A stretch of 64,000 nt of DNA from Candidatus Latescibacterota bacterium (GTDB lineage: Bacteria > Latescibacterota > UBA2968 > GCA-2709665), in NCBI GenBank assembly GCA_965208835.1, contig OZ242358.1:4288001-4352000 (forward strand), given 5' to 3'. Below, piece by piece: positions 1,308 through 46,562 of the stretch (its first letter is position 1; each line of letters begins with the position of its first letter). Position numbers and translations under genes: made by a program. The notes beneath the pieces were generated by a model that was given only the letters and a program-made list of their open reading frames with translations, was not told where the DNA came from and did no database searches.

Positions 1308-1325
1308 CCATTGGCGTATTCCGGC

Positions 1326-1354
1326 TTGACATCAACACCGTATCCTTGTATTTT
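1326..1354 (+). promoter_or_regulatory. sigma70 promoter for tRNA-Met
   Basis: TTGACA-N17-TATTTT, 20 nt upstream of the tRNA. Confidence 0.6.
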
Positions 1355-1374
1355 TTCGACCTGGTAATAAAGGT

Positions 1375-1450: not shown

Positions 1451-1481
1451 AGATACCTGAACAGCGTCGATATGTGACGCA

Positions 1482-1515
1482 AGCTCCCGTGGTCAAATTC
1501 ACGGGGGCTCATTTC
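1482..1515 (+). terminator. hairpin terminator downstream of the tRNA (possibly bidirectional)
   Basis: AGCTCCCGTG-N8-CACGGGGGCT followed by CATTT. Confidence 0.55.
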
Positions 1516-1571
1516 ATTCGGAGCGACTTCCAGGTCTTCCGCGAGAACGCATTGCCGACGTATAGGAAGCT

Positions 1572-1895: not shown

Positions 1896-1930
1896 GCTTC
1901 CACCTCCCTTGCGAGAATCTAAAAAAAGCA

Positions 1931-2992: not shown

Positions 2993-3000
2993 CCCGTCGT

Positions 3001-3906: not shown

Positions 3907-3958
3907 CTGTCAATATGCCTTTCGCCAGTCAAGAGAATCGTTGGTATAATTAAAGTCG

Positions 3959-4083
3959 GTGAGAGGGGAGACGGAAGACGGTAGATGAAGGCCTTGCCCG
4001 ATAGTTTTCTCCTACCTGACTGCGGCCAGAGCTGAAAACTTACATGGCATGCGATCTCTCACCTCTTACGTCTCACGTCTTAC
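3959..4083. repeat. inverted pair of tandem heptamer arrays
   Basis: GTGAGAG GGGAGAC GGAAGAC GGTAGAT (3959-3986) opposite CTCTCAC CTCTTAC GTCTCAC GTCTTAC (4056-4083). Confidence 0.5.
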
Positions 4084-5372: not shown

Positions 5373-5463
5373 TAAAAACGACCTCCTGACTGAAACCGCA
5401 GACTCCCCTGCGGTCCGTCCATGTCCGGGCCCTGGTTTCCGGCGGGCAGAACAATGCCGACAT

Positions 5464-5495
5464 TGCATCATAATATCTGCATCATTCACTGTCAA
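5464..5495 (-). promoter_or_regulatory. sigma70 promoter with overlapping direct-repeat operator
   Basis: Minus strand TTGACA-N17-TATGAT; ATGATGCA repeated at 14-bp spacing (5464-5471, 5478-5485). Confidence 0.65.
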
Positions 5496-5654
5496 GTCGC
5501 GATCAGGCGCGCTCGGCGTACCCCCGGTTGTAAAATGCCCGCTGCATGAGATTAATCGCTTGACAACCCGAACCGCCCCGGCCTATATATCACGCGCATG
5601 AGCAGGAACAACAGCGTTGACAGAGGCTGAAGATAACCTGTACCGGGAATTACG

Positions 5655-8600: not shown

Positions 8601-8804
8601 CTGAGAGAACCGCAGGGACGGCTGGCCGCGAAGGTGGACGGCGGATGGCGGATCGACCGCGAAGGTAGACGACCGATGACGATGGAAGACTTCCCGGTGG
8701 CCGACGGCGACGCCGGACCCAGGTATTCGGTCGCCATGGTCGGCGCCGGCGATTGGCTGGAGGTTCCGGACCTTGTACAATTCCAGGGCGTCGAAGGCGC
8801 GTGA
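5655..8804 (+). CDS. heparinase II/III-family polysaccharide lyase-like protein, probably exported
   Basis: Hydrophobic N-terminus; GNYGMHQ, ESLEYN, GDSG, HRHFDQLNI, DIGYP, TVAHNTVVVD, YRRA, GGRQHDY. Confidence 0.78.
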   Translation: MMDFYFSVLPAGLLATGIFVLMIAGAVRTASASDRRTYYTDARMDVVRHNLEHYGWAREHRAEILKKAEHWARYGDAKLRTLVSPPQVPRGYQVHNDGCPVHGVKVHEQGLYRWIIDFDRPYKVTCPVGGETYPSNDFEAFLATGMQDRSLLTGPYADDGWGWHRPGDPVPANYWFVAYYAHWSMMRFLMEAIEVLGQAAVLADEEENAKRFAHKCALLLWQLAEYYPEYKYERQSRESKEHNPEYTGKLFNRIWETRPPHTCAIAYDAVRPYLNTDTELLSLADRNGPEIHATIRDRLLCEAARCILDAAGGRIRGNYGMHQKALLTLAQVLAASEGRPRSEEMVQYVLANPDPEMATDMGLRDALENLVYRDGMPYESLEYNKIWVHDLTELAALMVDSGANLFEHPRYGKLVSWAFDVCIAGKFTPSTGDSGDMFAQRSAWQPAVCQLALPYVDDARLAWVLKTQPGARQDLFSMPVEAQVPAGTDGTKPEIGLRSCHFPAYGMANLQCGDETNRSAVSFFYGDHQAHRHFDQLNILLFSHDNALLTDIGYPEQTDAFNHRLAGFFTNTVAHNTVVVDEVRQGRGPGRLHGLVMEGFAQAVDASCDGAYAGRVDVYRRANVLVEAARGQHYLFDAFYVDGGRQHDYMLHGNQAAFDCRPGLGPVRKPGTLAGEDVPYEQFYDDPGLKGKRLSSVPYTGYRGSGYQFLYNVQKGNLTGEATAEWRLTKPIADQPERPWRGIGLRAHLIGRDEELFACDGPVQKYKYLPESVKFLVRRRTGTNLSSVFATVFEPYRETTWIRRATRIELTPDGFQAAAVRVDLEDGSTHYLFHALDADRMYTLQNDIRIAGQLAILALDETGRPVRAMLFNGRTLETDGLRLEGEGMRRSRIGSVDYGRGTIELADAVIEDTLRAGQAIPVVSDGFSDSVTLSKVIDRRRFSIGDEDVNVAGGPVLDVRADRLLTSASNPHAHAGMTLLNSLREPQGRLAAKVDGGWRIDREGRRPMTMEDFPVADGDAGPRYSVAMVGAGDWLEVPDLVQFQGVEGA

Positions 8805-8816
8805 ACGGGTTATCCA

Positions 8817-9821
8817 ATGGCGAATAAACAAAAGACCATCGCCGCGCTCAAAGCGGTTCGCGGAAACGGCGTGGCATGGCTATTGAGCCATCTGAATGCG
8901 GACGGGTCCCTGGGAGACCCCACGGAGGGCTTTCACTTCTACAGGGCGCCGTGGACGTTCGCCATTGTCGGCGAAACCGGGGCGGCGGCGGCAGTCTGCA
9001 GCTGGATCCGGCGGGAGATGTTGACCGAACAGGGAAGGATCGAGGGGCCCTGCCGTGTGTTTGACGATGCGTACGCCTATCGGAATGCCACGCTGATCGT
9101 CGGAGCGCATCTCGCGCGGCAGTACGATCTGAGCTACGGGCTGATGCCGGACCTGCTGTCATGGCAGGATCGGACATCCGGAGGATTTCACAACGACCGG
9201 CTGCCCGACGGCGGCATGAGCGACCGCCTGGATATTCCGTACGCGTGCGGGCCCGGACTGGCGTGCCTGGCGACCGGCCGCCTGGATGTCGCGCAATCCG
9301 TTTACCGGTTCCTGCGGCGGATTTACTCGGCTCAGAAGAACTTGCCCGAAACCTTTTACTATGCATGGTCCTGCAGAAAAGGCGGTGTGATTACCGACTA
9401 TTCGAATGACGATGGCTTCTGGCACGTGGTGGAGAACCGTGTGGATCGCCGGCAGCGCTGGACCGTTGGGGGCATTGCGGCCGGATTCCTGTGCCGTCTC
9501 TACCTGGCGGAACCCCGCTCCGAATACCTCGCACTTGCGCGGAGCTATCAGGCCTTCTCGATGGCGGCGTCGGATGCGCAGTTCAAGTATGCCCAGGTCT
9601 GCAAGAGCAGCTGGGGAAGCTCGCTCCTGTATCTGCTGACGGGCGAACGTGCGTACCTGGAATGGTCATGCCGCATGGGCGACTGGTATGTTCAGACGCA
9701 AGAGCCTGAAGGTTGCTGGCACTGGACCGGATACGAGACACAGGGATCGCGCATCGAACTGACGCTGGAATTCGTCATGCACGTGGACACGCTGATAGGC
9801 GGCCTGGCGTCCCGGACGTGA
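8817..9821 (+). CDS. hypothetical protein, probable alpha/alpha-toroid fold
   Basis: Recurring QW-like motifs (WLLSHLNADGS, WQDRTSGGF, YVQTQEPEGCW); operonic position. Confidence 0.55.
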   Translation: MANKQKTIAALKAVRGNGVAWLLSHLNADGSLGDPTEGFHFYRAPWTFAIVGETGAAAAVCSWIRREMLTEQGRIEGPCRVFDDAYAYRNATLIVGAHLARQYDLSYGLMPDLLSWQDRTSGGFHNDRLPDGGMSDRLDIPYACGPGLACLATGRLDVAQSVYRFLRRIYSAQKNLPETFYYAWSCRKGGVITDYSNDDGFWHVVENRVDRRQRWTVGGIAAGFLCRLYLAEPRSEYLALARSYQAFSMAASDAQFKYAQVCKSSWGSSLLYLLTGERAYLEWSCRMGDWYVQTQEPEGCWHWTGYETQGSRIELTLEFVMHVDTLIGGLASRT

Positions 9822-9840
9822 CTTCCAGGGAGGATTCATC

Positions 9841-10854
9841 TTGCGGGTTCTTGCGACGGGGGCGACCGGGCGAATCGGGCAGCATCTGGTGCGCGCGCTG
9901 ACCGATGCCGGGCATGCCGTCAGGGCGCTGGTGGTGCCTCACGATAACCGGGCGGCGGATCTGCCATCGGGCGTGGACGTCGTCTTCGGACGGCTCGAGG
10001 AACCCGCCTCGCTCGGCGCCGCGGTGGACGGTGTGGACGCGGTCTTCCACCTTGCCGGCGCGTTGACGTCTCGAGGCTGCCGCGAGGAAGAATTCGTCCG
10101 GGTCAACGTCCAGGGCACGTTTCATCTGCTGAGAGCAGTCCGCGACCGGGTCCCCGAACTGGCCCACTTTGTCTACGCCAGCAGCGATGCCGTCTATTTG
10201 GAGAAACCGGATGAGGACGCCCGGTACCTTCCGGTGGACGAAGATTATCCCCTGTTGGCGGGCTCGGTCTACGGCGCCAGCAAGATTGCCGGCGAGGAAC
10301 TCTGTCTGAGTTTCAGCCGCGGTTTTGGCATACCTGTAACGGTCCTTCGCTTTGGCGCAACGGCGGATGCCCGGGAACTCGTCAATCCGAACAGCGTGTT
10401 CGCGCGCTGGTTGTTTCTCCGCGCGGCAATCGACCACGTCAGGGCGATAACTGCTGCCAATGGCGCGCAGCTGGAGACGCAATCGACACTTGAAACGCTG
10501 TGCAACGGCGGCGAGCAGCTTGTCGTCTACGCGGATCGCGACGGTAACCCTGAGGTCAGGCAGTGGGCGGACGCCCGTGATATCGCGGCGGGATGTTTGC
10601 GCGTACTGGGGTCAGCGGCGGCGGTGGGAGAGGTATTCAATATGGGAGGACGCGAACCGCATTGCGCGGAGGCGTTCGTTGACTTTCTGGCCGCTCGGTT
10701 GGAATTGCCCCATATAAAGGCCTGCATTCCCACCGCGCGACGGCCCTGGTTTATTGCCAGCGGCAAGGCGGAACGACTGCTGGGCTATGAAGCCCGGTAC
10801 ACGGTGTACGATATGGTCGACGACGCTATTCAGACGCGGGAGACGCCCGTATGA
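9841..10854 (+). CDS. NAD-dependent epimerase/dehydratase (extended SDR)
   Basis: TGATGRIG, VFHLAG, ASSDAVY, YGASK. Confidence 0.9.
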   Translation: MRVLATGATGRIGQHLVRALTDAGHAVRALVVPHDNRAADLPSGVDVVFGRLEEPASLGAAVDGVDAVFHLAGALTSRGCREEEFVRVNVQGTFHLLRAVRDRVPELAHFVYASSDAVYLEKPDEDARYLPVDEDYPLLAGSVYGASKIAGEELCLSFSRGFGIPVTVLRFGATADARELVNPNSVFARWLFLRAAIDHVRAITAANGAQLETQSTLETLCNGGEQLVVYADRDGNPEVRQWADARDIAAGCLRVLGSAAAVGEVFNMGGREPHCAEAFVDFLAARLELPHIKACIPTARRPWFIASGKAERLLGYEARYTVYDMVDDAIQTRETPV

Positions 10855-11618
10855 ACCTTGCGTGCTGTATATGGGCTATCGAGGGCTCCGAAGACCGGGT
10901 CGCGGCGCGTGCGGCCGCGTTGGGGTTCGATTGGATCGACGTAAGGCCGTTCGCGTTTTCTTCGGACGGAGCACGGCGTAAAATCCGGGAGCACGGGCTC
11001 ATGGTTTCCTGTATCGCAGCGTCGTTCGGTATGCCGGAAGACGCCCGGTTGAGCAGTCCCGATCGCGACGCCCGGCTGGGAGCCGCTTCCTATCTCGATC
11101 GGACGCTGGCCTTTGGCGCAGCGCTGGGCGCTTCAGCCGCGTACGTCGTTCCGGATGAAGACCCGTCGTCTCTGGACAGATACGCGGCGGAATTGGAGAA
11201 GCTGGCCGAACGGGGAGACGCAATGGGCGTGCGGGTGTGCGTGGAACACTTCCCGGGTTCCGCACTCCCAACCGCCGCGGGGACGATCGCGTTCCTGCGG
11301 GACGTGGGACATCCCAACCTGTTCCTGCTGCTGGATATCGGCCATGCGCAGATGTCTGACGAAGATCCGGCAGCCGTGGTTTCAGAAGCGGGACCGCTGC
11401 TGGGATATGTCCATCTGGACGACAATGACGGTTCGCGCGACTTGCACCTGGCTCTGACGGACGGCATGCTGACCGAAGCAGCGCTGGTTGATACCGTTTC
11501 CGCCCTTGCCGATATCGGTTACCGCGGGAATCTGAGTCTCGAGTTACATCCGGAATTGCCCGATCCGCTCGATGCCCTCCGGCGAAGCCGGGAGATCGTT
11601 CTGAACGCGATGGGGTGA
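10851..11618 (+). CDS. sugar phosphate isomerase/epimerase (AP endonuclease 2 TIM barrel)
   Basis: CVEH, LDIGH, VHLDDN, DLHL, SLE metal ligands; ATGA overlap with the upstream gene. Confidence 0.85.
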   Translation: MNLACCIWAIEGSEDRVAARAAALGFDWIDVRPFAFSSDGARRKIREHGLMVSCIAASFGMPEDARLSSPDRDARLGAASYLDRTLAFGAALGASAAYVVPDEDPSSLDRYAAELEKLAERGDAMGVRVCVEHFPGSALPTAAGTIAFLRDVGHPNLFLLLDIGHAQMSDEDPAAVVSEAGPLLGYVHLDDNDGSRDLHLALTDGMLTEAALVDTVSALADIGYRGNLSLELHPELPDPLDALRRSREIVLNAMG

Positions 11619-11723
11619 AGGGCGGACATTATCCGAAGTCCGCGGCGGGTCGACAACAGCATGTGGTTCATACCTGCGTGTGGTACGTGCGGGTTTGCCA
11701 TCAATAGAAACGCAGGTATTGAT

Positions 11724-11990
11724 TCAGACCCTGTGTTTGGGAGGGCGAGCCGGAACGCCTGCGAGCATGCCCTGAGCGCTTATGTCTTCATCGATGTCGG
11801 GCCAACGGACTCCTATCCCATCGCCGATAATTTCGTAGTTGGCGCGTTCCTCCGGTGTGGCCTCCGACAGCCGCCACGACCAGACAAGAGGAACACTGAT
11901 TGTGCGACCGTCTACAAAGTCAGCTGTGATGGAGTCGTCAGTAACCCGGACAAGCTGAATTCTCGGTTCTGAACTACCCGCAATGTTCAT
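11724..11990 (-). CDS. DUF2442-family protein (putative antitoxin)
   Basis: DGRTISVPLVWSWRL, ATPEERANYEI, GVRWPDIDEDIS. Confidence 0.85.
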   Translation of the reverse strand: MNIAGSSEPRIQLVRVTDDSITADFVDGRTISVPLVWSWRLSEATPEERANYEIIGDGIGVRWPDIDEDISAQGMLAGVPARPPKHRV

Positions 11991-12210
11991 CCCAGTTCTC
12001 CAGGATCAGAATTACATTCGCGCGGATTGCTCTACGAATTCGGTTGAGTTCATGAGGCGAAAAACCCTGATTCCTGCAAAGACTGATCGGTTCGAGCCAA
12101 AATTTGCAGATCCGTTTTTCCCGCTGAACGTGTACATGTTTCGGTTCATTGTAGTCGAAGCTGAAGAAGAAGAATCGATAGGGACCGGTAATGTCTCTGA
12201 TAGTTGGCAT
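11974..12210 (-). CDS. DUF4160-family protein (putative toxin)
   Basis: MPTI...GPYRFFFFS..NEPKHVHV...KFWLEP...WDEH; overlaps the DUF2442 gene. Confidence 0.85.
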   Translation of the reverse strand: MPTIRDITGPYRFFFFSFDYNEPKHVHVQREKRICKFWLEPISLCRNQGFSPHELNRIRRAIRANVILILENWDEHCG

Positions 12211-12520
12211 TCTTGCAGATATCGACCCAGCAATCCAAAGATTAGCGAAAATCCGCCACAATGGCAACGGTTCAGTGTTGAGTCGGATGTCCATGACCTG
12301 AGACAGCCGGTCAGAATTCGCGTATGTAACCCCGTGAATATATGCCGAATTATTATTGAAATCAATAGAGTTCAAGTTGCCCGATAAGGACCTGCAATAA
12401 GGGAGTCTACCAATATTCAATTGGCGCCATCGAAGGCAGGTGAGTCAAAGCCAATGAACGATCCACTGTCTCTCCGTAGAGGGCAGACGAGTCAATTCAT
12501 CCACGATTGAAGAGGCCAGA

Positions 12521-13627
12521 ATGCGAATAGACAGCGACAGAGTCTACCTGTTTCGAGCCCAGATTGAGGGAAACGAGGCGCCATTCGAGGCATACAGGGA
12601 CCTTGCCCAAGCTGCATTGCGGCTCGTGGACCTCGCGCTGCCGGAAGAAGGAACCGTGCTGCTCAAGCCGAATGCGACTGTACTGTTTCCCGCTGAGAAA
12701 CGCATTGTAACGCACCCGGGATTTCTGGCGGGCATGGCCGACGCGCTCGTGGAAAAAGGCGTCGACGCAGGCAGACTGGTGGTTGCCGACGGACAATCCG
12801 GAGAACAACCGGAAAACGGGAATACGTGGAAGGGGGCGGGGTACACGACGATGGCCGACAGCAGAAAGCTGACGTTAGCCGAATTGAACGACCGCCCCAG
12901 CCGGAATGTGCAGGTGCCCGGCGGGGTAGTTTTCGAAGCCTATCCCATTTATCGGGAGGTGACCGACTGCGGGTTCTTTTTCAATGTACCGCTGGCGAAG
13001 TGCCACAACCTGGGATGTACGACCCTGGCGGTCAAGAACCTGATGGGAATTCTCGCGCGGCCGGAGCGCCATCTTTGTCATATCCAGGATGTAGACAAGC
13101 CGTACGAAAGCGACTTATGGAGGCTGACCGAGAGCGGCCTGAGTCTGTTCGAGGACCGGTTCTACCACAAGTTGTGCGACCTGGTGGCCGCGCTGCGTTC
13201 ACTGGATATTCCGCGGCTCTGCATGGTCGACGGGTTGGTCGGAAGAGACGGTACCGCGTTCAACGAGGGCGAGAATCATCCGTTGGGGTGGACCCTGATC
13301 GGAGAGAACGAGGTCCACGTGGACACGGTTGCGACGTATCTGATGGGCCTTGACCCCGAGACCACACCCTATCTCAGGTTTGCAGCCCTGCGAGGATTGG
13401 GCAGCAACAGGCTGGATGAGATCGAGGTGGTAGATCTGGCGGGCGGCGGGGTGATGGACCCGCAAGCGCTGGCACGGATTCGATCGAAGAAGGTTTTGAT
13501 GCCGATCGCCCGTTACGAGGGCGGTTATTATGATCGGTACCGGGCAGACGGTTCCGTTGTACCCTGGCGGATTGACGATGTGAACGAACAGCGACGCTCG
13601 GACGGATTGGAACCCGTTGAGATGTAG
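12521..13627 (+). CDS. DUF362-domain protein
   Basis: VLLKPN, VTHP, VVADG, NVPLAKCH, TLAVKNLMG, VDG, VD..ATYLMG. Confidence 0.85.
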   Translation: MRIDSDRVYLFRAQIEGNEAPFEAYRDLAQAALRLVDLALPEEGTVLLKPNATVLFPAEKRIVTHPGFLAGMADALVEKGVDAGRLVVADGQSGEQPENGNTWKGAGYTTMADSRKLTLAELNDRPSRNVQVPGGVVFEAYPIYREVTDCGFFFNVPLAKCHNLGCTTLAVKNLMGILARPERHLCHIQDVDKPYESDLWRLTESGLSLFEDRFYHKLCDLVAALRSLDIPRLCMVDGLVGRDGTAFNEGENHPLGWTLIGENEVHVDTVATYLMGLDPETTPYLRFAALRGLGSNRLDEIEVVDLAGGGVMDPQALARIRSKKVLMPIARYEGGYYDRYRADGSVVPWRIDDVNEQRRSDGLEPVEM

Positions 13628-37373: not shown

Positions 37374-37481
37374 GGTGTCTCCTTATTGGTTTTAGCGGCT
37401 AAGAAAGGTGAATTTCAGCGCGGTGTCCTGTTTCCGGCAGCGTTTCCTTCCAGAAGTACCGTTTTCAATCTCCGCTCAGGT

Positions 37482-37895
37482 TCAGCGGCTCCGACCGAAG
37501 ATCTTGTCGAATATGGACCTCCGTGAAAGCCGTTCGACTTCGACCCGCGTGCTGCGGATCTCGGACGAGAGTTCTTCCACAACTCCCAGCCTTTCGGTTA
37601 TACCGTTGAGCTGCTGCTCGACTTTGATGAGCTTTTCGCCGATCAATGCCGGATCGGTAGCCTGCAAAAGCTCAACGGCCCTCCGGAATTCAACGAGGAC
37701 GCTATTTAGCGATTCAACTGCGGCCCCGGCCACCGACGCGAGATCCGAGACGTTCGCATTGGCTTCGCCGAGTCCTGTTCCCGCTCTCGCCAGTGATTGC
37801 TGGAGCTCATCGAATTGTTCCAGCCGACGGACCACTTCCGCGGCGCGTCGTTCCGTTTCACCAAGCCGTTCCTGTAGTTCTTCCAATATATCCAT
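37482..37895 (-). CDS. small coiled-coil protein coupled to the RecQ-nuclease gene
   Basis: ATG directly follows the upstream TAG (GGAGCG TAG ATG); heptad pattern; C-terminal amphipathic RRSIFDKIFGR. Confidence 0.75.
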   Translation of the reverse strand: MDILEELQERLGETERRAAEVVRRLEQFDELQQSLARAGTGLGEANANVSDLASVAGAAVESLNSVLVEFRRAVELLQATDPALIGEKLIKVEQQLNGITERLGVVEELSSEIRSTRVEVERLSRRSIFDKIFGRSR

Positions 37896-40800
37896 CTACG
37901 CTCCCAATGCCTCTGCCAGACCGGGCGTCTCATATTGCCGGACTACTCGATCGGACACGATTTTCAATCGATCGAAAACGTCGCGAATGTTCCACGTCGC
38001 GATTACCGCACTGACGCGAGGATCATCGAGTTCAACCGCCCGCTGAATCGCCTTTTCCGCCACGCATGCGTAGTCCGGCGACGCGTCGACGAAATCGAGC
38101 AGCGCGACGGTAAGCGGCGGGCCTAGATCAACAGCGCGGGTTGAGGCCAAGTCGTACATCTCGTCGATTGAGGCCTCGATATCCGTCCACCCAATCCCGT
38201 ATTTCTCGACGCCGGACCGTATCGCGGCGCTGATGCCCCTAGCGCTCACGGTTCCATCATGATCCATGCACATGGCCTCCGAAAGCGCGCGGGTCATCAG
38301 AAGCCCCGGATGATCGGGATATGTCTCAAGCGCGCGAATGCACAGTCCGCGAAGCTCACCCGCATCCATCATCGACTGCACTTTGGAAACAAGATCCCAC
38401 CAGGCGGCCAACTCGACGTCCTCGTTCAGAAGTAGTCCTTCGATGTGCTCGGCGCCAAAGCCTTCCTGAAGGTAGTCCAGCAGTCGTATGCGAATCTCCG
38501 CGTCGTCCCTCGCCTGCCGGGCAAGGAGCAAGGCCTCGCGGATCATGCCCCGCCGCGAACGTTCGACAAGGTCATAAGTAAACTCGATCAGAATCGTAGC
38601 AAGCGCAAGCGCCGCATCACGCGCCTGCACGGTGTCGATCTTGTTTACCTTGCGAACAAGCGACTTGATCCGTCCCGGCTGCGCGGCGCGAACGAATTCA
38701 AGCAGACTGTCCTTGCATCGATCGAAATCGAACGCGTCTACGTGAAGTACAAACCTGCGGGAACCGAACTCGACTTCATAGTCGTCGATCACGCCAAGTC
38801 TCAGTAGCCGGTAGATTGCCTTCTCAGCTCTGATGCGGTCATCGCCGTCTTCAAAGGGTCGTTCGATGCGTTGCCTGGAAGCGAGATCGCCCAGCGCATT
38901 CAACAGATCAGTCACATCAACGATTTCACGCGCTGCACCGCCGAATGACTGCAGGTGAAACCATAATGCCCGGGTAAGGTCATCCGCCGTTCGGGTACTT
39001 CCACTGATCACCTCGAACTTTTCGCGAAGTACTTCGAGATCGAGTTCGGGATCGATCAACTCTGAGGAGCGACCCGGGTCATATTCCGAAAACACGATTG
39101 TCGCGCGCGCGGTTTTTTGGTCTCGCCCGGCACGGCCAGCTTCCTGATAGAAGCTCTCAAGCGACATTGGCATTCCAAAATGCACAGTATATCGGATATT
39201 CGATTTGTCGATCCCCATTCCGAAAGCCTTGGTCGCGACAAGCACGGGCACTCGATTGGATTTAAAGTCGGCAGCATTTGCACGTTTTCGTGTGTCCCAC
39301 TTGTCGGCGTCCACAGACGAAGGAGGGCTGCCTGAATAGATGGTGACGTCCGCGCCCGTCGCGTGCTGCACCACACTTCGCACATCCTGCACCCCGTAGA
39401 TACGGGCGTTAACCGTTGGAACGAATACAATACCTGATGCGGTATCGGCTCCCGACGACCGAAAGAACTCCGTCCTCGGCAATCCGAATCTTCCAGGCAG
39501 CGCGTTCAGTACGCCGCGCAAGGCCGCTGACGGGTCTTCGACCGGCGAGGTGCGCACGATATCAAAGCGGATTTCAGAACGGTCAAACGAATCCGGACGG
39601 ATCAATGAATCCGAGCGATTCTTGTCGATGCCGAGGTCCAGAAGCATGTCCCGCAGGACGGCGCGCGAGGCAGTTCCTGTAAGCGCAAGGAGCGGTGGCG
39701 GATTGGATTCGCCATCTACCCCGAGCCTTCTCAGATTGTTCGCGAGGTTCAGGTACGCGGGCCTGAAGTCGTGGCCCCATTCCGATACGCAGTGCGCTTC
39801 GTCGATGACGGCCAAATTGACGAGCGTACTCTCCACCAGTGCGCGGAGCGCCGTCCGAAATCGCGGAGACTGCAATCGTTCGGGCGCGTGAAGCACAAAC
39901 AGGTACTCGCCTCGCTCGACCCGACGAAGCAGGCTTGCGCGCTCTTCCCTGCCCGCAAGGTAGCTGGTAACCGAAGCCGCCCTGTCGATTCCGTACGACC
40001 GTAATCCCTCAACCTGGTCTTCTATCAATGCGGTTATCGGGTCGACCACCAGCGTCACACCGGGCATGAGCAGACCGGCGAGCTGGTAGATGATACTCTT
40101 ACCACCGCCAGTCTGGAGCAGCACAACGCTGTCGGTCTGTCGCAGCGCGTTTAAGATCGCCTGTCCCTGCATCGGGCGGAATTCTTTTTTTCGAAATATG
40201 TTGCGAAGGAACATCCTGAGCGGCACGCGAGCCTTTTCGTAGGTCGAGACTACCGCGGCCCGTCTGCGCACATCGAACGACTGCGCGGCAGCGATCAATG
40301 CGGGGACGTACACGGGGCGAACGACGAAATCCAGTTCCTCATGTGGAATGCTGTGATACGGACTGTATGCCGATTCGGCACTTATTCGCAGCGGTTCACC
40401 GTCGGTTCCGGTTTCAGCGGCCTTGACCCACTGACCACCCCCTTCGTGACTCCAGGCTCCGAAGAATCCGTCATCCGTGCGAACGGAACACTTGGTAGGG
40501 ACCGAACAACCGCCATACAGGACGTCGATGCCTGCGAGGAACCGAAGGACGTCCAGCACGCCCGGCACGGCCGGTGTTCCCGCACCTTGGATGTGAATCT
40601 CCCAACTTCCGTCAGGTGTCAGCCAGCCGTATTCCATGGCACGAGCGACCGTAAACTGGACCCTGGCCGCGTTCGCGCAGTCGAGGGCGAGCGACGCGAC
40701 AGCCCGCTCCAAGCCACTTATTTGGTCGAATGCCGTGAGGGCTTCCCGGCAGCGAACACGGATTTTGTCGAGCATATCGCCACGGCCATTGAGTACTTCC

Positions 40801-41777
40801 GTGTTGGTGACGCGCAGGACGTCAATACCGACTGAACCCAATGCTTCATCGCGTGCTTCGTCCACCGCGACCGAGTCATCGTGTTCGGGACCGTCGATCT
40901 CTATGGCGAATGGAGGAGCTCCTGGGTGGCAGAAGAGAAAGTCTACGCGACGGACGCCGTTCCCGTATCCGCCCGAAGACTCAACCAGTCGGTCCAGCGG
41001 GGCCTGCGGGGTAAACCAGTGACCAGCTGTTGACTCAAGCGCCGCAGGCACCCACTGATTGAGAAACCAGCTTTCTGCCTGGCTCTGCAGCAGTGATACG
41101 TCCGACCCGGGATCAAAGTCGAAAGCAGGGTCTAGAATGAAACGGGCTCTTTCGGCGATCCTCGAGAGTACGGTATCAGCCGTGCAACGTAGCGACGAGC
41201 TTGTCCGCGGCACCCATCCAACGTCGGTATCTTCCCTATTGGTAACGTCCTGCCGATCCAAAAAGCCGTGGGCACGTAGCGCCTCCCGTTCAACCTCCAG
41301 AGTCGCCGGAGGCGTTTGGCCACGGCGCAGCAACTTGAGAATCAGGCCGGCGGCAAAGCGGACGTACTCGTCCACATGCCCGCGCTCTCGGCTCCGACGC
41401 GAGAAAAGAACGCATTGACTGAGGGCCCTCGTCAAACGCGCGTCCTGTCCTAGCTGTTCCTTGAGGATTCCCGGGATTGCACCTACCGAAACGTACTCCG
41501 GGATGAAGTTCAGTCGACGTACGCCCTCGATCCAATCGACCGGAAGCAGATCATGTTTCGGCACAGGCGCTCGGCGTGAGGTTGCCGCCGGCTCCGAATT
41601 GTTAGCAAGACGACGCGTCCCCCGGCACCGGGGAAACTTTGTACAACCCCAGAACCGTTCACCCGGATTGCGGCCCTTCTTCGCCGTACGAAGGGCCATT
41701 GGCGCACCACAGGAGGGGCAGCTTGGCGATTGGGGTCGGGAGATCGATTTGTTCATTTCGAGTTCGTTCAACGCCAA
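37896..41777 (-). CDS. Zn-ribbon + DUF559/Vsr-like nuclease + RecQ-family helicase fusion
   Basis: CPSCG..M.LR....G...G.RFWGCTKFPRC; RVDFL..AIEIDGPEH...DEARD..L...GIDVLRV; FRPMQ, TGGGKS, DEAHCVSEWGHDFRPAY, TGTA, ATKAFGMGID, YQEAGRAGRD. Start may be ATG 41756. Confidence 0.88.
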   Translation of the reverse strand: MALNELEMNKSISRPQSPSCPSCGAPMALRTAKKGRNPGERFWGCTKFPRCRGTRRLANNSEPAATSRRAPVPKHDLLPVDWIEGVRRLNFIPEYVSVGAIPGILKEQLGQDARLTRALSQCVLFSRRSRERGHVDEYVRFAAGLILKLLRRGQTPPATLEVEREALRAHGFLDRQDVTNREDTDVGWVPRTSSSLRCTADTVLSRIAERARFILDPAFDFDPGSDVSLLQSQAESWFLNQWVPAALESTAGHWFTPQAPLDRLVESSGGYGNGVRRVDFLFCHPGAPPFAIEIDGPEHDDSVAVDEARDEALGSVGIDVLRVTNTEVLNGRGDMLDKIRVRCREALTAFDQISGLERAVASLALDCANAARVQFTVARAMEYGWLTPDGSWEIHIQGAGTPAVPGVLDVLRFLAGIDVLYGGCSVPTKCSVRTDDGFFGAWSHEGGGQWVKAAETGTDGEPLRISAESAYSPYHSIPHEELDFVVRPVYVPALIAAAQSFDVRRRAAVVSTYEKARVPLRMFLRNIFRKKEFRPMQGQAILNALRQTDSVVLLQTGGGKSIIYQLAGLLMPGVTLVVDPITALIEDQVEGLRSYGIDRAASVTSYLAGREERASLLRRVERGEYLFVLHAPERLQSPRFRTALRALVESTLVNLAVIDEAHCVSEWGHDFRPAYLNLANNLRRLGVDGESNPPPLLALTGTASRAVLRDMLLDLGIDKNRSDSLIRPDSFDRSEIRFDIVRTSPVEDPSAALRGVLNALPGRFGLPRTEFFRSSGADTASGIVFVPTVNARIYGVQDVRSVVQHATGADVTIYSGSPPSSVDADKWDTRKRANAADFKSNRVPVLVATKAFGMGIDKSNIRYTVHFGMPMSLESFYQEAGRAGRDQKTARATIVFSEYDPGRSSELIDPELDLEVLREKFEVISGSTRTADDLTRALWFHLQSFGGAAREIVDVTDLLNALGDLASRQRIERPFEDGDDRIRAEKAIYRLLRLGVIDDYEVEFGSRRFVLHVDAFDFDRCKDSLLEFVRAAQPGRIKSLVRKVNKIDTVQARDAALALATILIEFTYDLVERSRRGMIREALLLARQARDDAEIRIRLLDYLQEGFGAEHIEGLLLNEDVELAAWWDLVSKVQSMMDAGELRGLCIRALETYPDHPGLLMTRALSEAMCMDHDGTVSARGISAAIRSGVEKYGIGWTDIEASIDEMYDLASTRAVDLGPPLTVALLDFVDASPDYACVAEKAIQRAVELDDPRVSAVIATWNIRDVFDRLKIVSDRVVRQYETPGLAEALGA

Positions 41778-41848
41778 TCAATCCCGCGCAGACGAGAACG
41801 GGTTACAACAGAAATGGCTTAGCCATCTACTGGATGGATTTATCGGGC

Positions 41849-41885
41849 ATAATAAATGCCCCTCAGACTTTCTGTCAAGGGGCAT
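41849..41885 (-). promoter_or_regulatory. terminator hairpin with embedded sigma70 promoter, copy A
   Basis: ATGCCCC-TTGACA-GAAAGTCTG-AGGGGCAT-T-TATTAT; 31/35 identical to 45014-45048. Confidence 0.75.
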
Positions 41886-41915
41886 AACACAGGTCGACTT
41901 TAACAGCGCGTCCGT

Positions 41916-41987
41916 CTACTCCACCGCAAACAGTCGGTTGCGCGCGGGGAGGCTGACGATCTTCGAATGGTGGTGGACCCTGAGATC
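41916..41987 (-). repeat. orphan duplicate of the 3' end of gene 45822-46562
   Basis: 72 bp, about 62/72 identical to 45822-45893 with a 32-bp identical core; encodes DLRVHHHSKIVSLPARNRLFAVE* versus DLKIHHYSKIVSLPARNRVFAVE*. Confidence 0.9.
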
Positions 41988-42085
41988 CCTTCTACCGGGA
42001 TCACCGTTTCGAAATTCGGTCCACGAAACGAGCGTATCGAAGCGTTAGTCTTCCTGCCGGATGGACCAGACTAGATCGCAAGAGC

Positions 42086-42114
42086 GGTCAGCAACATATC
42101 ACTCGTTGCTGACC
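42086..42114. terminator. hairpin just downstream of the Abi-like gene
   Basis: GGTCAGCAAC-N9-GTTGCTGACC, perfect 10-bp stem; no long U-tract. Confidence 0.45.
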
Positions 42115-42121
42115 ATGGAAT

Positions 42122-42892
42122 TTACGGACCTTCGAATGTTTCAAAAGCCCTTTTCTTATATAGGTCCAAATGTCTTTCGTCCAGAAGAACGTTGTAATCC
42201 ATGACCTCAAATAGTGAGTATCTCTCGACAAGGCGTTTGAATTTGGCTCCTCTGTCACTCAAGCAATTGTAGAAGACAACCCCTTGTTCATTACTAGACA
42301 AATGACCACGAATAAGATCCGTATAGTGCTTTTTCTCTTCGAAATCCTGCAAGAAAGAGTGTTCGTCAACGAATTTAATGGTATTGTAAAGATGCCGAAA
42401 ATAATGGTCTGCGCCCCGCAGATCGTTTTCCGCAAATTCCCTCCAGATCTCGTTGATGTCCCTGTTGGATTCGCTTTCGTACTTCGTCTTCAATCGACTG
42501 ATGTACGTACCAAAGCACTGACGTCCAGTACGATGAACTGAATCAGCAGTCTGCAATGAATCAACGATAGCAATGTGTGAGCGCAAGAGCTGAAAGAATG
42601 AACTCTCGAAATTTTGTTTCTTTGAGGTTTGGTCTTGCGCCATAAGTTGTTCTCTTTGGAGACCAAGTTCATTCTTCTGAAGGATTATCGCCAAAATTAC
42701 GCCCGCAAAGGCAAAACCGGCAAATAGCGCATTTATGGCACCGAACGTATCTCCGAATTGTCCTCGTTCCTCCAAATCTGGAAAGAGACATGAAATTGCC
42801 AGCGGATAGAGGATCCACAATCCAATGACAATTGCCGAGAAGATTAACATCCAACTCCATATTCGAGGCTTTTTTGCGGTATTTGTCACCAT
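42122..42892 (-). CDS. putative phage abortive infection protein (two TM helices)
   Basis: TM-GQFGDTFGAINALF-TM-LQ..EL..Q...FESSFFQLL, HYFRHLY..IKFVD, YT.LIR..LS..E, FYN. Confidence 0.82.
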   Translation of the reverse strand: MVTNTAKKPRIWSWMLIFSAIVIGLWILYPLAISCLFPDLEERGQFGDTFGAINALFAGFAFAGVILAIILQKNELGLQREQLMAQDQTSKKQNFESSFFQLLRSHIAIVDSLQTADSVHRTGRQCFGTYISRLKTKYESESNRDINEIWREFAENDLRGADHYFRHLYNTIKFVDEHSFLQDFEEKKHYTDLIRGHLSSNEQGVVFYNCLSDRGAKFKRLVERYSLFEVMDYNVLLDERHLDLYKKRAFETFEGP

Positions 42893-42917
42893 TGCCTCCA
42901 GTCAATAGCCATAGAAG

Positions 42918-43583
42918 TCAATACGCGGGGACCCCAGTCCTTTCGCCGATCCATTCGATCACAGTCGCGAATGTCGGACACTGCTTCACGATGTCATGTA
43001 TGTCTGCGTTCCTAAGAATTGCATCGCTATCCCTAATCTCGCTATAGGATCGTTTAAGGTGTTTCCGGAATAATTCCTCGACGATTCTCTTCGGAGGTTT
43101 GTCCTGATTCTGTTTTTCGGGCGGTCGCCGCCATCCGCCGGGACTCTTCGACATCTTGAGTCGGGACTGAAGTTGGTCGGTCGCCGCGAGGAGCAGAACT
43201 TCCATGTCGTGTTTCAGGGCGTTTGCGTGGAATCTAGCGATATGACTTTCGACATCCCTTCGACTCATTCCAGTCTTTTCCAATTCGCCCCGTACCAGCC
43301 GGTCTTGCACATCCTGCAATTCTCCCAAATTCCGATGTCTGTAATTGTCGGAAATGCCGCGGTTCGGATAAAGGTCTGGCAGGCTAACAACAAGATCGCA
43401 CGGATCGTTTACGAGTTTTTCCATCGCTCGTGACCCGATTTTTGTAAGGAATTTGGGCTTGTTATCGAGTTGAATTAGCTGAATGCCCCTGCCGTTTTCT
43501 CGTAGTTCCCGCCTCCATCCACCCCACAACGCCTCCAATGCACCAACGTCAGACCTACCCTCCACAAATACCCAGACTTTCAT
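42918..43583 (-). CDS. DUF4276-family (TOPRIM-like) protein
   Basis: VFVEG..D, PDLY, HDMEVLLLA, PE.QN...PP.R, CP.F; ATGA overlap with the ATPase stop. Confidence 0.78.
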   Translation of the reverse strand: MKVWVFVEGRSDVGALEALWGGWRRELRENGRGIQLIQLDNKPKFLTKIGSRAMEKLVNDPCDLVVSLPDLYPNRGISDNYRHRNLGELQDVQDRLVRGELEKTGMSRRDVESHIARFHANALKHDMEVLLLAATDQLQSRLKMSKSPGGWRRPPEKQNQDKPPKRIVEELFRKHLKRSYSEIRDSDAILRNADIHDIVKQCPTFATVIEWIGERTGVPAY

Positions 43584-44872
43584 GCACCGGCCTCCAGTTC
43601 GCCAGAGCGGTGGAGGTCGCCAAGGGTTTCGCCTGAGACATCTTGAAGCATATTCACGAGCGTCTGCCGGTTCGCTGGACGATGCCAGACGACCTTCGCA
43701 TCGTCCTCATTCCGCGCCATTACGCCAACGGTATCAATATCGAAGCAGTTGAGCAGATCCGGGCTGTGGGTGGTTACCAGCACCTGGTTGCGCGCTGCGG
43801 CGGCCTTAATCATCTCAGCCACAACCGGCAACATACCGGGATGTAGACCCAATTCCGGTTCGTCAATTGCCAAAAATAGCAGGGGCTTCGGATTCAATAG
43901 AGCAGTCGCGAGACATAGGAATCGCAGCATGCCATCCGAAAGATCCCATAGATTCATCGACCTGTACATGCCCTTCTCGCGGACGCCAACGAGCAGTTGC
44001 GGTGGTGTGCCAAACGTAGTGTCGCAATGGATTTCTTCGAAAGCGGGATACGCCGCCCGGAGAAATTCCCGGAGTTCCTCTGCTGATGACCTGTAATCAT
44101 ATCGTGTGAGGATTTCGTGGAGAACAGTACCCAGGTTGTCGCCGTTAGCCGAAAGGGTTGTAACCGGCTTGATCTCGGCGGCCTTAGTGCGAAGTGCCGA
44201 AGATCGTGTGACATCGAACCCTGGATAGAACGCCATATTCGTAAGCAAGTAGCGTACCCAAGAGGGAACGGGAAATTCGTTGAAGAAGCGGATTTGCGAC
44301 AGCAGCAAAGCGGCATCTTGTTGGACAGAATCTTGGGCGCTACCTGCCTGGTTTGGTTCCGCGCCTTCCGACTCACGCACGACTTCAGCTGCGGTTTGGG
44401 TTTCATCGAATGATATCAGACGCCGTTGCTTATTGTCGAATATGTGTCGTCGATAGGGGGTTACTTCGAGGAATTTAAGCGGATTGTTAAATCCCTGTCT
44501 AGGATCTTGTGTTCGGAGTACTTCGTAATGCGGGCGAATCTGACCATGACCATCGACCTTAAGAACAACCTCGTATACCAGTGGTTCGCCCCATTCTAAA
44601 GGAAGAGTAACCGATGTGGATGGATTGAGAAAAGTCATTTTCCACGTAAGTTCATTTTCCGCCTTACCTGAAGTCAGAATGGAAGCCGCCCCGTAGTGCC
44701 ATCCGAAAGCAGTATTGAGAGGCACTTCACTGCATTCGCCTATCAGTTGCAGGCAATCAATAAGCGTGCTCTTGCCGACCCCGTTTGCACCAATGACCAC
44801 CGTGAGCGGCGTGAAGTCCGCCTTGAATTCGTCTAGAAGCCGGTAGCCCCCGATCTCGATTTCAGTAATCAT
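43580..44872 (-). CDS. AAA_21/AAA_15-type ABC ATPase
   Basis: Walker A GANGVGKS, signature LSDG, Walker B IDEPELGLHP, H-loop TTHS. Confidence 0.92.
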   Translation of the reverse strand: MITEIEIGGYRLLDEFKADFTPLTVVIGANGVGKSTLIDCLQLIGECSEVPLNTAFGWHYGAASILTSGKAENELTWKMTFLNPSTSVTLPLEWGEPLVYEVVLKVDGHGQIRPHYEVLRTQDPRQGFNNPLKFLEVTPYRRHIFDNKQRRLISFDETQTAAEVVRESEGAEPNQAGSAQDSVQQDAALLLSQIRFFNEFPVPSWVRYLLTNMAFYPGFDVTRSSALRTKAAEIKPVTTLSANGDNLGTVLHEILTRYDYRSSAEELREFLRAAYPAFEEIHCDTTFGTPPQLLVGVREKGMYRSMNLWDLSDGMLRFLCLATALLNPKPLLFLAIDEPELGLHPGMLPVVAEMIKAAAARNQVLVTTHSPDLLNCFDIDTVGVMARNEDDAKVVWHRPANRQTLVNMLQDVSGETLGDLHRSGELEAGA

Positions 44873-45011
44873 AGGAATAGACCTTTCATCTCAATTCCCG
44901 AAAATCTCTCCGTACTCGGCTCTGTCAGTCGAGTACATGACCCTAGAATTCGGGAACCACGCCCCGGCCGCAATATAGAGTCGAATACGACAGATTCAAG
45001 GACAACTGACT

Positions 45012-45048
45012 ACAATAAACGCCCCTCAGTCTCCCTGTCAAGGGGCAT
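45012..45048 (-). promoter_or_regulatory. terminator hairpin with embedded sigma70 promoter, copy B
   Basis: ATGCCCC-TTGACA-GGGAGACTG-AGGGGCGT-T-TATTGT. Confidence 0.75.
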
Positions 45049-45143
45049 GGTACTGGCGATAATCGTGCCGGCACTGCCTAATTTTCCTCAATTTACCGAA
45101 CCGGATCAACTTACGGATGGTGCGGGCGAATCGGACGCAATGT

Positions 45144-45770
45144 CTACTTCAATCTGACTTTGGGATCGTCCTCATACGCCGAGTCAATCTGGACCAGGCG
45201 CTCCAGAATCCTGCAGAACAACTCGAAGAGATCCTTCAATGCCTCGGCTTCCCTGATCACACCTGCACATTCAAAATACAACTCATCGACGCCATCGGGA
45301 AAATCGGCGCCAAAGATGCCTTCGTCGTCTTTAATCCGGAGATGTACCTTCGGCTGTTTCTGAAACAACTCCCGTATCCTCTCATCGGCCAGCAGAAGCT
45401 TGATCTTTTCCGGACTGTTGCCCTTGATCAGGAACCGGTCGTCAAAAAACCGATCGCCGATAACGATGTCCCGCATACCGAAGAGTCTACCGATCGAACT
45501 CAGGAATCCTTCGAGTGAAACATCGAAGTAGAGACCATCCTTGTTGACGAACGGCGCCCGCATCCGGGTGTACTGCACTGTCATCATCATCGTTCCCGAA
45601 TAGGTTGTCTCCGTACGGGTATCGAGGATGATCCGCCACTCACCGTGTTTGTACGTAACGGCGTTCTCTCCCCAGAAACCCCCGTCGATGAATTCACCCG
45701 CAATATCTGACGCAATCTGCCTCCAGATTTCATCCTTTGACGGGCCGAAGATCGACCTGCGTATGCTCAT
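45144..45770 (-). CDS. DUF3137-like protein
   Basis: FGPSK.EIWRQ, YTRMRAP.VN.DG, GM.DI.IG..FD..F.IK; GGAGG RBS. Confidence 0.7.
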   Translation of the reverse strand: MSIRRSIFGPSKDEIWRQIASDIAGEFIDGGFWGENAVTYKHGEWRIILDTRTETTYSGTMMMTVQYTRMRAPFVNKDGLYFDVSLEGFLSSIGRLFGMRDIVIGDRFFDDRFLIKGNSPEKIKLLLADERIRELFQKQPKVHLRIKDDEGIFGADFPDGVDELYFECAGVIREAEALKDLFELFCRILERLVQIDSAYEDDPKVRLK

Positions 45771-45821
45771 TCTTCCTCCATAGCGGAGATCTTTCAGAAT
45801 GTGGACGTCTGCCGGCGTGCC

Positions 45822-46562
45822 CTACTCCACCGCGAAGACCCGGTTGCGCGCGGGGAGGCTGACGATCTTCGAGTAGTGGTGGATTTTCAGATCGGGATTT
45901 GCGGGATCGACGGCGGTGGGCGCTTCGATCACGAAGTCGGCAAAGTGCGGTGTATTGAACGCCACGAAGGCGAGCGACAGGCAGTCGACAAGCCGTTCAG
46001 GCCGTCTCGAGAGATCCGGAAAGGCGATCGGACCGGTATCGACCTGGTAGCGATCGTCCTCGCGGCGGGTGTTCATCGTCTTCACCGGACACTCGATGAG
46101 GGTGCTGAGTCTGGTATCGTCGTTTCGAACTTCGGTCTGCGAGACCAGCGGCGCGAAGCGGTAGGTTTCCTCGCGGATGGACGCGTTCGAGGGCAATTCA
46201 CGAACGCTCGCGCCTTCCACGAGGTGGAGATCATAACCGCCGAACATCGCTGAGTACGGCCGTGTTTCTCGGTAGTGGTCGTTCAAGCTAACCGGACGCC
46301 GGAAGATGAGACCGTACTTCGCGCTGAAAATCGGCAGGAAGTCGTAGTTGTCCTGCTTGAACAGGTCCTTCCGGTGAAAGGTATTCTCGCTCTTGCAGGA
46401 AGCGGTCTGATAGAACTCCTCGCTGGTCCCCGCGCTTTCGTCCAGGACCCGGGTTCGCGACTCGATCCAGAAGCGCACCTCATTGGCCGAACCTTTCCCG
46501 ATGAGGAATGAACGGCCGTAGTCCAGCGGGATCATATCGATTCCGACAGTCGGAGTCCCCAT
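45822..46562 (-). CDS. conserved hypothetical protein (anchor gene of the defence hotspot)
   Basis: PLDYGRSF, NEVRFWIESR, ASCKSENTF, NYDF.P.F, IECPVKTMN, YQVDTGP; host-like composition. Confidence 0.75.
   Translation of the reverse strand: MGTPTVGIDMIPLDYGRSFLIGKGSANEVRFWIESRTRVLDESAGTSEEFYQTASCKSENTFHRKDLFKQDNYDFLPIFSAKYGLIFRRPVSLNDHYRETRPYSAMFGGYDLHLVEGASVRELPSNASIREETYRFAPLVSQTEVRNDDTRLSTLIECPVKTMNTRREDDRYQVDTGPIAFPDLSRRPERLVDCLSLAFVAFNTPHFADFVIEAPTAVDPANPDLKIHHYSKIVSLPARNRVFAVE

Follow-up and report, generated by a model that had tools for sequence, protein, structure and literature searches.

A Zn-ribbon/DUF559-nuclease/RecQ-family helicase fusion and its predicted membrane-anchored coiled-coil partner: a candidate two-gene defence module in Candidatus Latescibacterota

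A 64,000-nucleotide stretch of a Candidatus Latescibacterota bacterium genome (contig OZ242358.1), here called the window, carries on its minus strand an unusual pair of genes. The first encodes a Zn ribbon, a DUF559-type nuclease domain and a RecQ-family helicase core in a single polypeptide of 1293 codons, and the second is a 137-residue coiled-coil open reading frame (ORF) that follows it without a gap. The locus raises the question of whether these two genes form a functional unit, and if so, whether that unit belongs to a known system. A preliminary description of the window proposed a two-gene defence system outside the named ones. We analyzed the domain make-up of both proteins, their distribution, their genomic surroundings and their relation to described systems. 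The results suggest that the pair is a nuclease-helicase defence candidate with an unusual, separate membrane anchor, and that it is so far undescribed.

Architecture of the fusion protein

The two ORFs and the junction between them, in which the TAG of the fusion gene directly abuts the ATG of the partner, are as initially described. The start codon of the fusion gene needs a correction. The 1293-residue ORF begins at TTG 41777, but its relatives align only from residues 4–7, where an (E/D)MN is conserved, and hence the true start is probably ATG 41756 (Met8). Many public entries of the family are 1265–1267 residues long, begin at Met27 inside the Zn ribbon and lack PF01396. A start at Met27 drops the first CxxC of the ribbon. 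As the upstream CxxC is kept in frame in 11 of 11 other loci examined, the Met27 starts appear to be mis-called.

Four Pfam domains are recognized in the 1293-residue protein, namely Zn_ribbon_Top1, DUF559, DEAD (residues 534–706), and Helicase_C (residues 820–886). An alignment of 22 sequences with 43–88% identity to the window protein displays conservation along the entire length. The coordinates of all features are collected in Table 1. The Zn ribbon is assigned by a score above the Pfam cutoff and by its four cysteines, Cys20, Cys23, Cys45, and Cys51, which are invariant in 12 of 12 loci.

Table 1. Features of the helicase-partner locus and its surroundings, with positions in the window
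Feature	Coordinates	Strand	Residues	Evidence or remark
Zn-ribbon / DUF559 nuclease / RecQ-family helicase fusion gene	37896-41777	minus		1293-codon ORF
Topoisomerase-type C4 Zn ribbon	41601-41723	minus	19-59	PF01396, 35.9 bits, cutoff 32
Conserved alpha/beta N-domain, fold unassigned	41151-41543	minus	~79-209	high-confidence AlphaFold2 model
DUF559/Vsr-fold PD-(D/E)xK-type nuclease domain	40731-41114	minus	222-349	PF04480 and structure matches
Conserved alpha/beta domain, fold unassigned	40308-40715	minus	~355-490	AlphaFold2 model
RecQ-family superfamily 2 helicase core	39036-40229	minus	517-914	motifs 0, I (TGGGKS), II (DEAH), aromatic loop, III, VI
Winged-helix-like subdomain	38733-38939	minus	947-1015	AlphaFold2 model, pLDDT 90.7
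All-helical, TPR-like C-terminal domain	37899-38732	minus	1016-1293	AlphaFold2 model; conserved family-wide
Coiled-coil partner gene, 137 residues	37482-37895	minus		translationally coupled (TAG followed by ATG)
RRSIFDKIFGR motif, partner C-terminus, putative amphipathic membrane-targeting helix	37491-37523	minus		kept in 13 short-form loci, two phyla
Promoter-like TTGACA-18-TATTAT	41878-41849	minus		11/12 consensus positions; element spans 41849-41882
25-nt motif CCCCTTGACAGAAAGTCTGAGGGGC, holding helicase promoter	41858-41882	minus		upstream of helicase gene
Second copy of the 25-nt motif	45021-45045	minus		upstream of AAA_21 gene; only other copy in genome
AbiC/AbiP-like gene	42122-42892	minus		PF16872 74.5 bits; PADLOC AbiP 55.5 bits
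DUF4276 gene	42918-43583	minus		PADLOC HEC-01 B
AAA_21 ATPase gene	43580-44872	minus		PADLOC HEC-01 A
Accessory island, 7.75 kb	37387-45140	minus		AAA_21, DUF4276, AbiC-like, RecQ fusion, partner; flanked by p208 and p800
p208, core flank gene	45144-45770	-		adjoins island
p800, core flank gene, 800 residues	34971-37373	-		adjoins island

The nuclease domain is recognized by both sequence and structure. PF04480 (DUF559) matches residues 290–343 with 33.6 bits (cutoff 20.6), and the motifs RRVDFLF (276–282), AIEIDGPEH (291–299), and DEARD (306–310) are all present. The residues Arg276, Asp279, Glu293, Asp295, Gly296, His299, Asp306, Arg309, and Asp310 are invariant in 22 of 22 homologues, and likewise in 67 of 67. 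Structure superposition of residues 222–349 (model residues 163–290) on the DUF559 protein NGO0050 (3hrl) gave a Z score of 9.5 with 94 aligned residues and 32% identity; the same protein was recovered by sequence (E 2.4e-5). The Z scores with the catalytic domain of I-Bth0305I (3r3p) and with Vsr (1cw0) were 9.4 and 7.7, respectively. By score, fold, and the D...ExDG..H...D..RD residues, the domain is a DUF559/Vsr-like endonuclease. Its active site appears intact, and the fusion protein is predicted to cleave DNA. The fold and motif are common to the three reference structures and the fusion protein, but NGO0050, Vsr, and I-Bth0305I are small stand-alone or homing-endonuclease domains, whereas the copy in the fusion protein sits between two conserved domains and is fused to a helicase.

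The helicase core belongs to the RecQ family without being a canonical RecQ. The NCBIfam RecQ-family subfamily model TIGR00614 scores 229.1 bits (cutoff 219.8), and RecQ, BLM, and RECQ5 sequences in the Protein Data Bank (PDB) match the core with E values of 1e-75 to 1e-67. The motif 0 residues, Lys560 of TGGGKS, DEAH 659–662, the RecQ aromatic loop, TGTAS, and motif VI (QEAGRAGR, 878–885) are invariant in 22 of 22 homologues. Like E. coli RecQ (1oyw), BLM, RECQ1, and RECQ5, the fusion protein has a superfamily 2 core with all the RecQ motifs, including the aromatic-rich loop HCVSEWGHDFRPAY. Unlike them, it lacks the Zn-binding cysteine cluster, and RQC, RecQ_Zn_bind, and HRDC have no Pfam match in the 1293-residue protein at E<=0.01. 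The RecQ equivalog models fall short of their cutoffs (TIGR01389, 258.5 against 640.2; PRK11057, 208.3 against 1015). The fusion protein differs further from RecQ in its added 515-residue N-terminus with Zn ribbon and nuclease, in a different helical C-terminus, and in being the product of an accessory, island-borne gene paired with that of a predicted membrane protein. The Zn ribbon, the intact nuclease motif, the RecQ motifs, the missing RQC cysteines and HRDC domain, and the long helical C-terminus had all been read from the sequence beforehand, and each reading stands.

Two segments of the fusion protein were modelled. The AlphaFold2 model of residues 60–520, built on a 67-row alignment, has a predicted local distance difference test score (pLDDT) of 90.5 and a predicted template modelling score of 0.91; that of residues 905–1293 has a pLDDT of 90.7 and is mostly helical. 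In Foldseek searches against the PDB, neither model had a match at E<=0.001. In the VIA-align structure search, the N-terminal model was matched only through its nuclease domain, while the C-terminal model gave middling helical and winged-helix matches. Residues ~79–209 had no separate structural match, the match lists being filled by the nuclease domain, and residues ~355–490 had no match of their own in the searches of the longer model. ESM Atlas yielded no usable match for residues 62–228 or 345–520. We do not claim new folds for these two domains, both of which were searched only inside larger models. Residues 947–1015 form a beta-alpha-beta-beta unit with weak matches to assorted winged-helix domains (Z ~6), and no RecQ RQC chain is among them. 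The best structural Z score of residues 1016–1293, 8.3, is below significance for helical repeats.

The host genome has two further RecQ-like genes. One (G000:C1:1334415-1335443) lies in a frame of ~1771 residues that is matched in 12 of 14 other genomes of the genus (open frames of 1761–1791 residues). The other (G000:C1:2311851-2313986; L213 1352-3487) encodes a 711-residue helicase with a weak C-terminal Pribosyltran (phosphoribosyltransferase) match. We considered the latter as a canonical housekeeping RecQ and rejected it, since it has no RQC or HRDC; no claim is made of a housekeeping RecQ elsewhere in the genome.

The partner, its predicted membrane anchor, and the pairing

The partner gene immediately follows the helicase gene in 17 of 17 loci, at start-stop offsets of −7 to +2 nt. 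These loci (the window, L105–L114, L011–L013, L115, L211, and L212) stand for some ten separate lineages. Eight loci belong to one genus and are counted once; the others come from three more genera of its class, from three genomes of another phylum-level class, from two metagenome-assembled genomes (MAGs), one proteobacterial and one of the Dehalococcoidia, and from a metagenome contig. The named loci are from Bryobacterales, Proteobacteria, and Dehalococcoidia, and a partner of 85% identity is listed as coming from a Gemmatimonadota MAG. The pairing of helicase and partner is conserved across phyla. The partner is under purifying selection, with a ratio of nonsynonymous to synonymous substitution rates of 0.09–0.23 in 8 of 8 orthologue comparisons. 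Together with the conserved position downstream of the helicase gene, this ratio argues that the small ORF is a real gene and no fortuitous frame.

The pairing extends to a divergent subfamily from a sister family (L195–L197). Its 1231-residue protein is 38% identical to the fusion protein over residues 516–1160 and has a DUF2726/DUF559 domain but no Zn ribbon. In 3 of 3 of its loci, the next gene is an overlapping coiled-coil ORF ending in (K/R)RGIFFSW(K/R). Counting these loci as well, the spacing of the two genes ranges from −14 to +2 nt.

Two forms of the partner can be told apart by their C-terminal ends. Long-form partners (L011, L012, L013, L115, and L116) have 179–199 residues and a C-terminal hydrophobic helix, with only 1–5 residues beyond it and a Kyte-Doolittle mean over 19 residues of 2.0–2.7. 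They are predicted to be tail-anchored membrane proteins. Short-form partners, found in the window's class and in two acidobacterial genomes, have 133–199 residues and no transmembrane (TM) segment, the Kyte-Doolittle maximum being at most 1.3 in the 11 scored. They end in a conserved (R/Q)(R/Q)(S/T)(I/L/F)(F/I)x(K/Q/R)(I/V)(F/L)G, in brief RxSI(F/I)xxIFG. The window's partner is of the short form, and its C-terminus reads ERLSRRSIFDKIFGRSR. The N-terminal ~100 residues align between the two forms. A TM anchor exchanged for a short hydrophobic and basic motif at the same place is what would be expected of an amphipathic membrane-targeting helix. The RRSIFDKIFGR end had been compared with membrane-targeting sequences from the outset, and we likewise take it to resemble the C-terminus of MinD; the TM helix at the corresponding position of distant orthologues strongly reinforces that initial guess. 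As judged from these sequence features, the role of the partner as a membrane tether is well supported, and the short-form motif is a putative helix that would hold its protein on the membrane.

A profile built on 16 partners finds 34 proteins, none of which has an informative Pfam family. In PADLOC searches, the partner matched only coiled-coil models (E>=2.7e-3). Kinship to ZorA, JetC, SMC, and Rad50 was considered and dropped, because the matches to these models are weak and were judged to reflect coiled-coil composition.

The length of the stalk varies between loci: the partner of L196 has 322 residues with an expanded coiled coil, and that of L211 (genome G219; 11928-12527) has 199 residues with a tandem duplication of a segment of ~43 residues that includes an RLSRQTI motif. 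Two loci have a damaged helicase gene next to an intact partner gene. In the metagenome contig L116 (1602-3189), only the first 284 helicase codons are left, from the Zn ribbon to RVDFLF, followed after 167 nt by a long-form partner with its TM helix, which looks like the remnant of a deletion. In L110 (G012:C4; locus 8010-11869 in helicase orientation), the helicase is split into ORFs of 378 and 927 residues by a frame change near residue 369, and is probably a recent pseudogene.

The helicase family is rare, patchy, and accessory, and the gene pair is horizontally mobile. When the 168 genomes of the phylum were searched with the N-terminal 460 residues, 13 gave a match at E<=1e-10. Eleven of them are of the full-length type, including 8 of the 15 genomes of the genus, and two are short and partial. 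The corresponding figure for another class is 3 of 401 genomes. Among ~15 billion proteins clustered at 50%, the query finds 79 clusters at a threshold of E<=1e-30 and 212 at E<=1e-10. In a scan of genome contigs, the generic RecQ motif dominated, and 3 of the best 80 loci also covered the N-terminal part of the query; in a metagenome scan, Zn-ribbon matches dominated, and 2 of the best 80 loci (L115 and L116) belong to the family. A tblastn search of plasmid and phage collections with the N-terminal 461 residues gave no relative, and a scan of viral contigs likewise gave none; both results are neutral with respect to a defence function.

Genomic island, known systems, and possible functions

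The helicase gene is accessory and island-borne. We inspected the corresponding site in five sister genomes without a match to the helicase N-terminal query. In four of them (G009, G002, G011, and G006), where the site is otherwise identical, the core genes p208 and p800, which bound the island in the window, adjoin each other at a distance of ~85 nt; the fifth, G013, has a rearranged flank. Homology to the empty site of G009 ends at 45141 and resumes at 37386. The G+C content is 0.49–0.52 over 42001-46000, where the AbiC-like, DUF4276, and AAA_21 genes lie, as against ~0.60 elsewhere, and that of the helicase pair is near genomic (0.58–0.59). The reading of the neighbouring genes as Abi-like and AAA_21-DUF4276 was borne out by their family and PADLOC matches. 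The AbiC/AbiP-like gene stands between the DUF4276 and helicase genes only in the window and in one sister locus, that is, in two of the seven genus loci with an upstream flank.

Defence or mobile genes occur within ~8 kb of the pair in 7 of 11 independent contexts, which is a raw count. In the Dehalococcoidia MAG locus (L013), a Druantia-type DruE (1806 residues, 1556 bits) and a DruK-like PD-(D/E)xK nuclease lie immediately upstream of the pair at 1025-7557, with a 121-residue ORF in between. A Cas4-like PD-(D/E)xK gene begins 14 nt past the partner gene in L115. The neighbours in L195 are SoFic, a type II restriction-modification pair, and an AAA+PDDEXK_9 gene; those in L012 and L212 are phage-type integrases; and those in L112 are a radical-SAM/SPASM protein, an HD protein, and a DnaB gene.

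Among the described systems compared, none covers the whole of the pair. PADLOC-DB v2 models match the fusion protein only over its helicase core (DpdF, up to 279 bits; PsyrT, 202 bits; DrmA, BrxH, SngC, and DruE, weaker), and no model covers its N-terminus or the partner. The claim that the pairing falls outside named systems is so far supported; our full-text literature searches gave no description of the DUF559-RecQ architecture or of the pairing, and supplementary tables of candidate systems may list it. The best match, the DpdF model PDLC02864 (278.8 bits, residues 517–914), misses the Zn ribbon, the nuclease, and any partner, as do the other DpdF models, and the score of NCBIfam NF041063 is 153.3, with the cutoff at 550. 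In the divergent subfamily, the match to one DpdF model reaches into the C-terminal region. Other Dpd genes were absent from the nine neighbouring proteins scanned with PADLOC models. PsyrTA, too, is a pair of genes centred on a RecQ-like helicase, and its PsyrT model matches the fusion core at 202.4 bits. PsyrA is a nucleotide-binding-type protein, whereas the partner described here is a coiled-coil, predicted membrane-anchored protein with no PsyrA-type match, and the fusion adds nuclease and Zn ribbon to the helicase. Hhe, as reported by Gao et al. in 2020, is a single-gene helicase with a Vsr-like endonuclease that occurs in defence islands. The concept of a helicase fused to a Vsr/DUF559-like nuclease is alike, but the helicase of Hhe is from another superfamily and is not known to have a partner. 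None of the 23 PADLOC families that match the fusion protein at E<=0.01 is HheA, Hna, HamB, ZorD, or HamA. Zorya (ZorAB with the helicase-nuclease ZorD) and Hachiman (HamAB) also couple helicase with nuclease, and Zorya has a membrane component with a long coiled coil. In contrast to Zorya, the window locus has no MotAB-like genes, and the partner matches ZorA and JetC models only weakly (E 5e-7 to 1e-2), in a way that looks like coiled-coil composition.

From the genomic context, we infer a function in defence. We give about an even chance to the reading that the pair is an undescribed anti-phage or anti-mobile-DNA defence module whose partner anchors the nuclease-helicase at the inner membrane. 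In such a module, the Zn ribbon would bind DNA, and the RecQ part would act as an ATP-driven 3'-5' DNA translocase or unwindase. The partner would form a cytoplasmic coiled-coil stalk with its C-terminus either inserted in the inner membrane (TM helix) or lying on it (amphipathic helix). By binding the nuclease-helicase, it would keep the enzyme at the membrane and off the nucleoid, which would both protect the cell's own DNA and place the enzyme near the entry point of foreign DNA. The helicase would load on the free ends of the invader or on single-stranded or branched DNA, and the nuclease would then cut. A more specific version, rather doubtful as it stands, is a "spatial" immunity in which the tail-anchored stalk limits the nuclease-helicase to DNA crossing the membrane during phage injection, conjugation, or transformation, location deciding between self and non-self; where a MinD-like amphipathic helix replaces the TM helix, reversible binding might serve as a switch for release or activation.

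The nearest functional analogue is SNIPE, a nuclease held at the membrane that cleaves phage DNA as it is injected; once the membrane anchor is removed, its nuclease harms the cell itself (bioRxiv 10.1101/2025.11.03.685801). In both cases, a nuclease would sit at the inner membrane, anchoring would prevent self-cleavage, and the position would favour cleavage of entering DNA. SNIPE consists of one protein, in which an N-terminal TM helix is combined with DUF4041 and a GIY-YIG nuclease, and it is not homologous to the fusion pair. In the pair, the proposed anchor is a coiled-coil protein of its own, with a membrane tail, and the enzyme combines a Vsr-fold nuclease with a RecQ helicase. Protection against phages, if the pair confers it, would extend the known defence systems by a RecQ-based nuclease-helicase whose membrane anchor is a separate protein, and would supply a second case, unrelated to SNIPE, of location-based discrimination between self and non-self. 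The exchange of TM and amphipathic ends in the partner offers a natural test of how tethering governs a nuclease that may be toxic to its own cell. A sensing function may reside in the two conserved N-terminal domains and in the C-terminal domain, for which the searches have so far given no recognizable fold match. Moreover, the phyla from which the helicase family comes (Gemmatimonadota, Acidobacteriota, and Chloroflexota) are soil and sediment phyla that are poorly studied, and few systems have been tested in them.

Several points weigh against a defence module of this kind. Four of the 11 independent contexts (L113, L114, L011, and L211) have neighbours that are unfamiliar or housekeeping only. 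No PADLOC-DB v2 model exists for the whole fusion protein or for the partner, and the evidence from context therefore consists of the neighbours. The helical, membrane-binding nature of the amphipathic motif is suggested by its pattern and by its replacement with TM helices. In the genus, the pair shares an operon or island with the AAA_21-DUF4276 genes, and it may not act alone there.

Those who see in the strict two-gene coupling of an island-borne module the mark of an addiction system may read the pair as a toxin-antitoxin or addiction-like module, in which the RecQ-nuclease would be a DNA-damaging toxin and the partner would neutralize it by membrane sequestration or direct inhibition. 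We regard this as unlikely. It draws on the RecQ-like helicase that serves as the toxin of PsyrTA and on the toxicity of anchor-less SNIPE, but the PsyrT match is limited to the generic helicase core, and the partner has neither PsyrA-type similarity nor any PADLOC partner match. The intact partner beside the split helicase in G012 is tolerated and says little either way. The module would then stabilize the island, or bring about abortive infection when the partner is lost. It overlaps the defence module proposed above, but predicts cell death instead of DNA interception. RecQ helicases and Vsr-type nucleases are also classical repair enzymes, some loci have housekeeping neighbours only, and the evidence for immunity is indirect; an accessory helicase-nuclease that handles transforming, conjugative, or membrane-attached DNA at the membrane, in repair, recombination, DNA uptake, or transfer and without a role in immunity, would fit these facts. 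This explanation seems to us very unlikely, because the family is rare and patchy, sister genomes lack the inserted island at the corresponding site, known defence genes recur as neighbours, and no competence, conjugation, or repair genes adjoin the pair in the loci scanned.

A further possibility, compatible with the defence module, is that in the genus the OLD/AbiL-like ATPase pair (AAA_21 and DUF4276) cooperates with the helicase pair in a four-gene system. The AAA_21-DUF4276 genes lie directly upstream in 7 of 7 genus loci with an upstream flank (the contig of L111 begins inside the helicase gene). In L106–L110, the helicase ORF starts 16–40 nt past the DUF4276 ORF (three loci) or overlaps it (two loci), and no separate promoter region is evident, so that the arrangement looks like a four-gene operon. 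The separate promoter of the preliminary description therefore holds only locally: a promoter-like element precedes the helicase gene where the AbiC-like gene is inserted, and none is evident in these five sister loci. In the window, this element is contained in a 25-nt motif, CCCCTTGACAGnnAGnCTGAGGGGC, which holds the −35 box within an inverted repeat and has exactly two copies in the 5.18-Mb genome at up to three mismatches, one upstream of the helicase gene and a near-copy upstream of the AAA_21 gene (Table 1). This motif may serve both sites as a common operator, or it may stem from a promoter duplication that accompanied the insertion of the AbiC-like gene. Since the near-copies are unique to the two sites and the genes are closely spaced in the sisters, the two pairs are probably co-transcribed or co-regulated in the genus. 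Against a four-gene system, the genus loci are one inherited island and count as a single observation, AAA_21 with DUF4276 stands alone as the PADLOC candidate HEC-01, and no homologue of either gene was found at E<=0.01 in 12 of 12 loci outside the genus. We consider it distinctly unlikely. The last result also led us to reject AAA_21-DUF4276 as obligate partners throughout the family, and it leaves helicase and partner as the minimal conserved unit.

Genes at the island boundary

The gene p800, which follows the partner in the window, was considered as a third gene of the module and rejected, because it is a core gene in 5 of 5 module-less sisters examined and is parted from the pair by variable inserts in some loci. 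It has no Pfam, NCBIfam, or PADLOC match, and each of the five sister genomes searched has two paralogues of it with 45–49% identity. The extra genes between partner and p800 differ among the sisters (L105, 12625-14513; L106, 12925-18034; L110, 12677-15632), and the interval between p208 and p800 therefore behaves as a variable hotspot.

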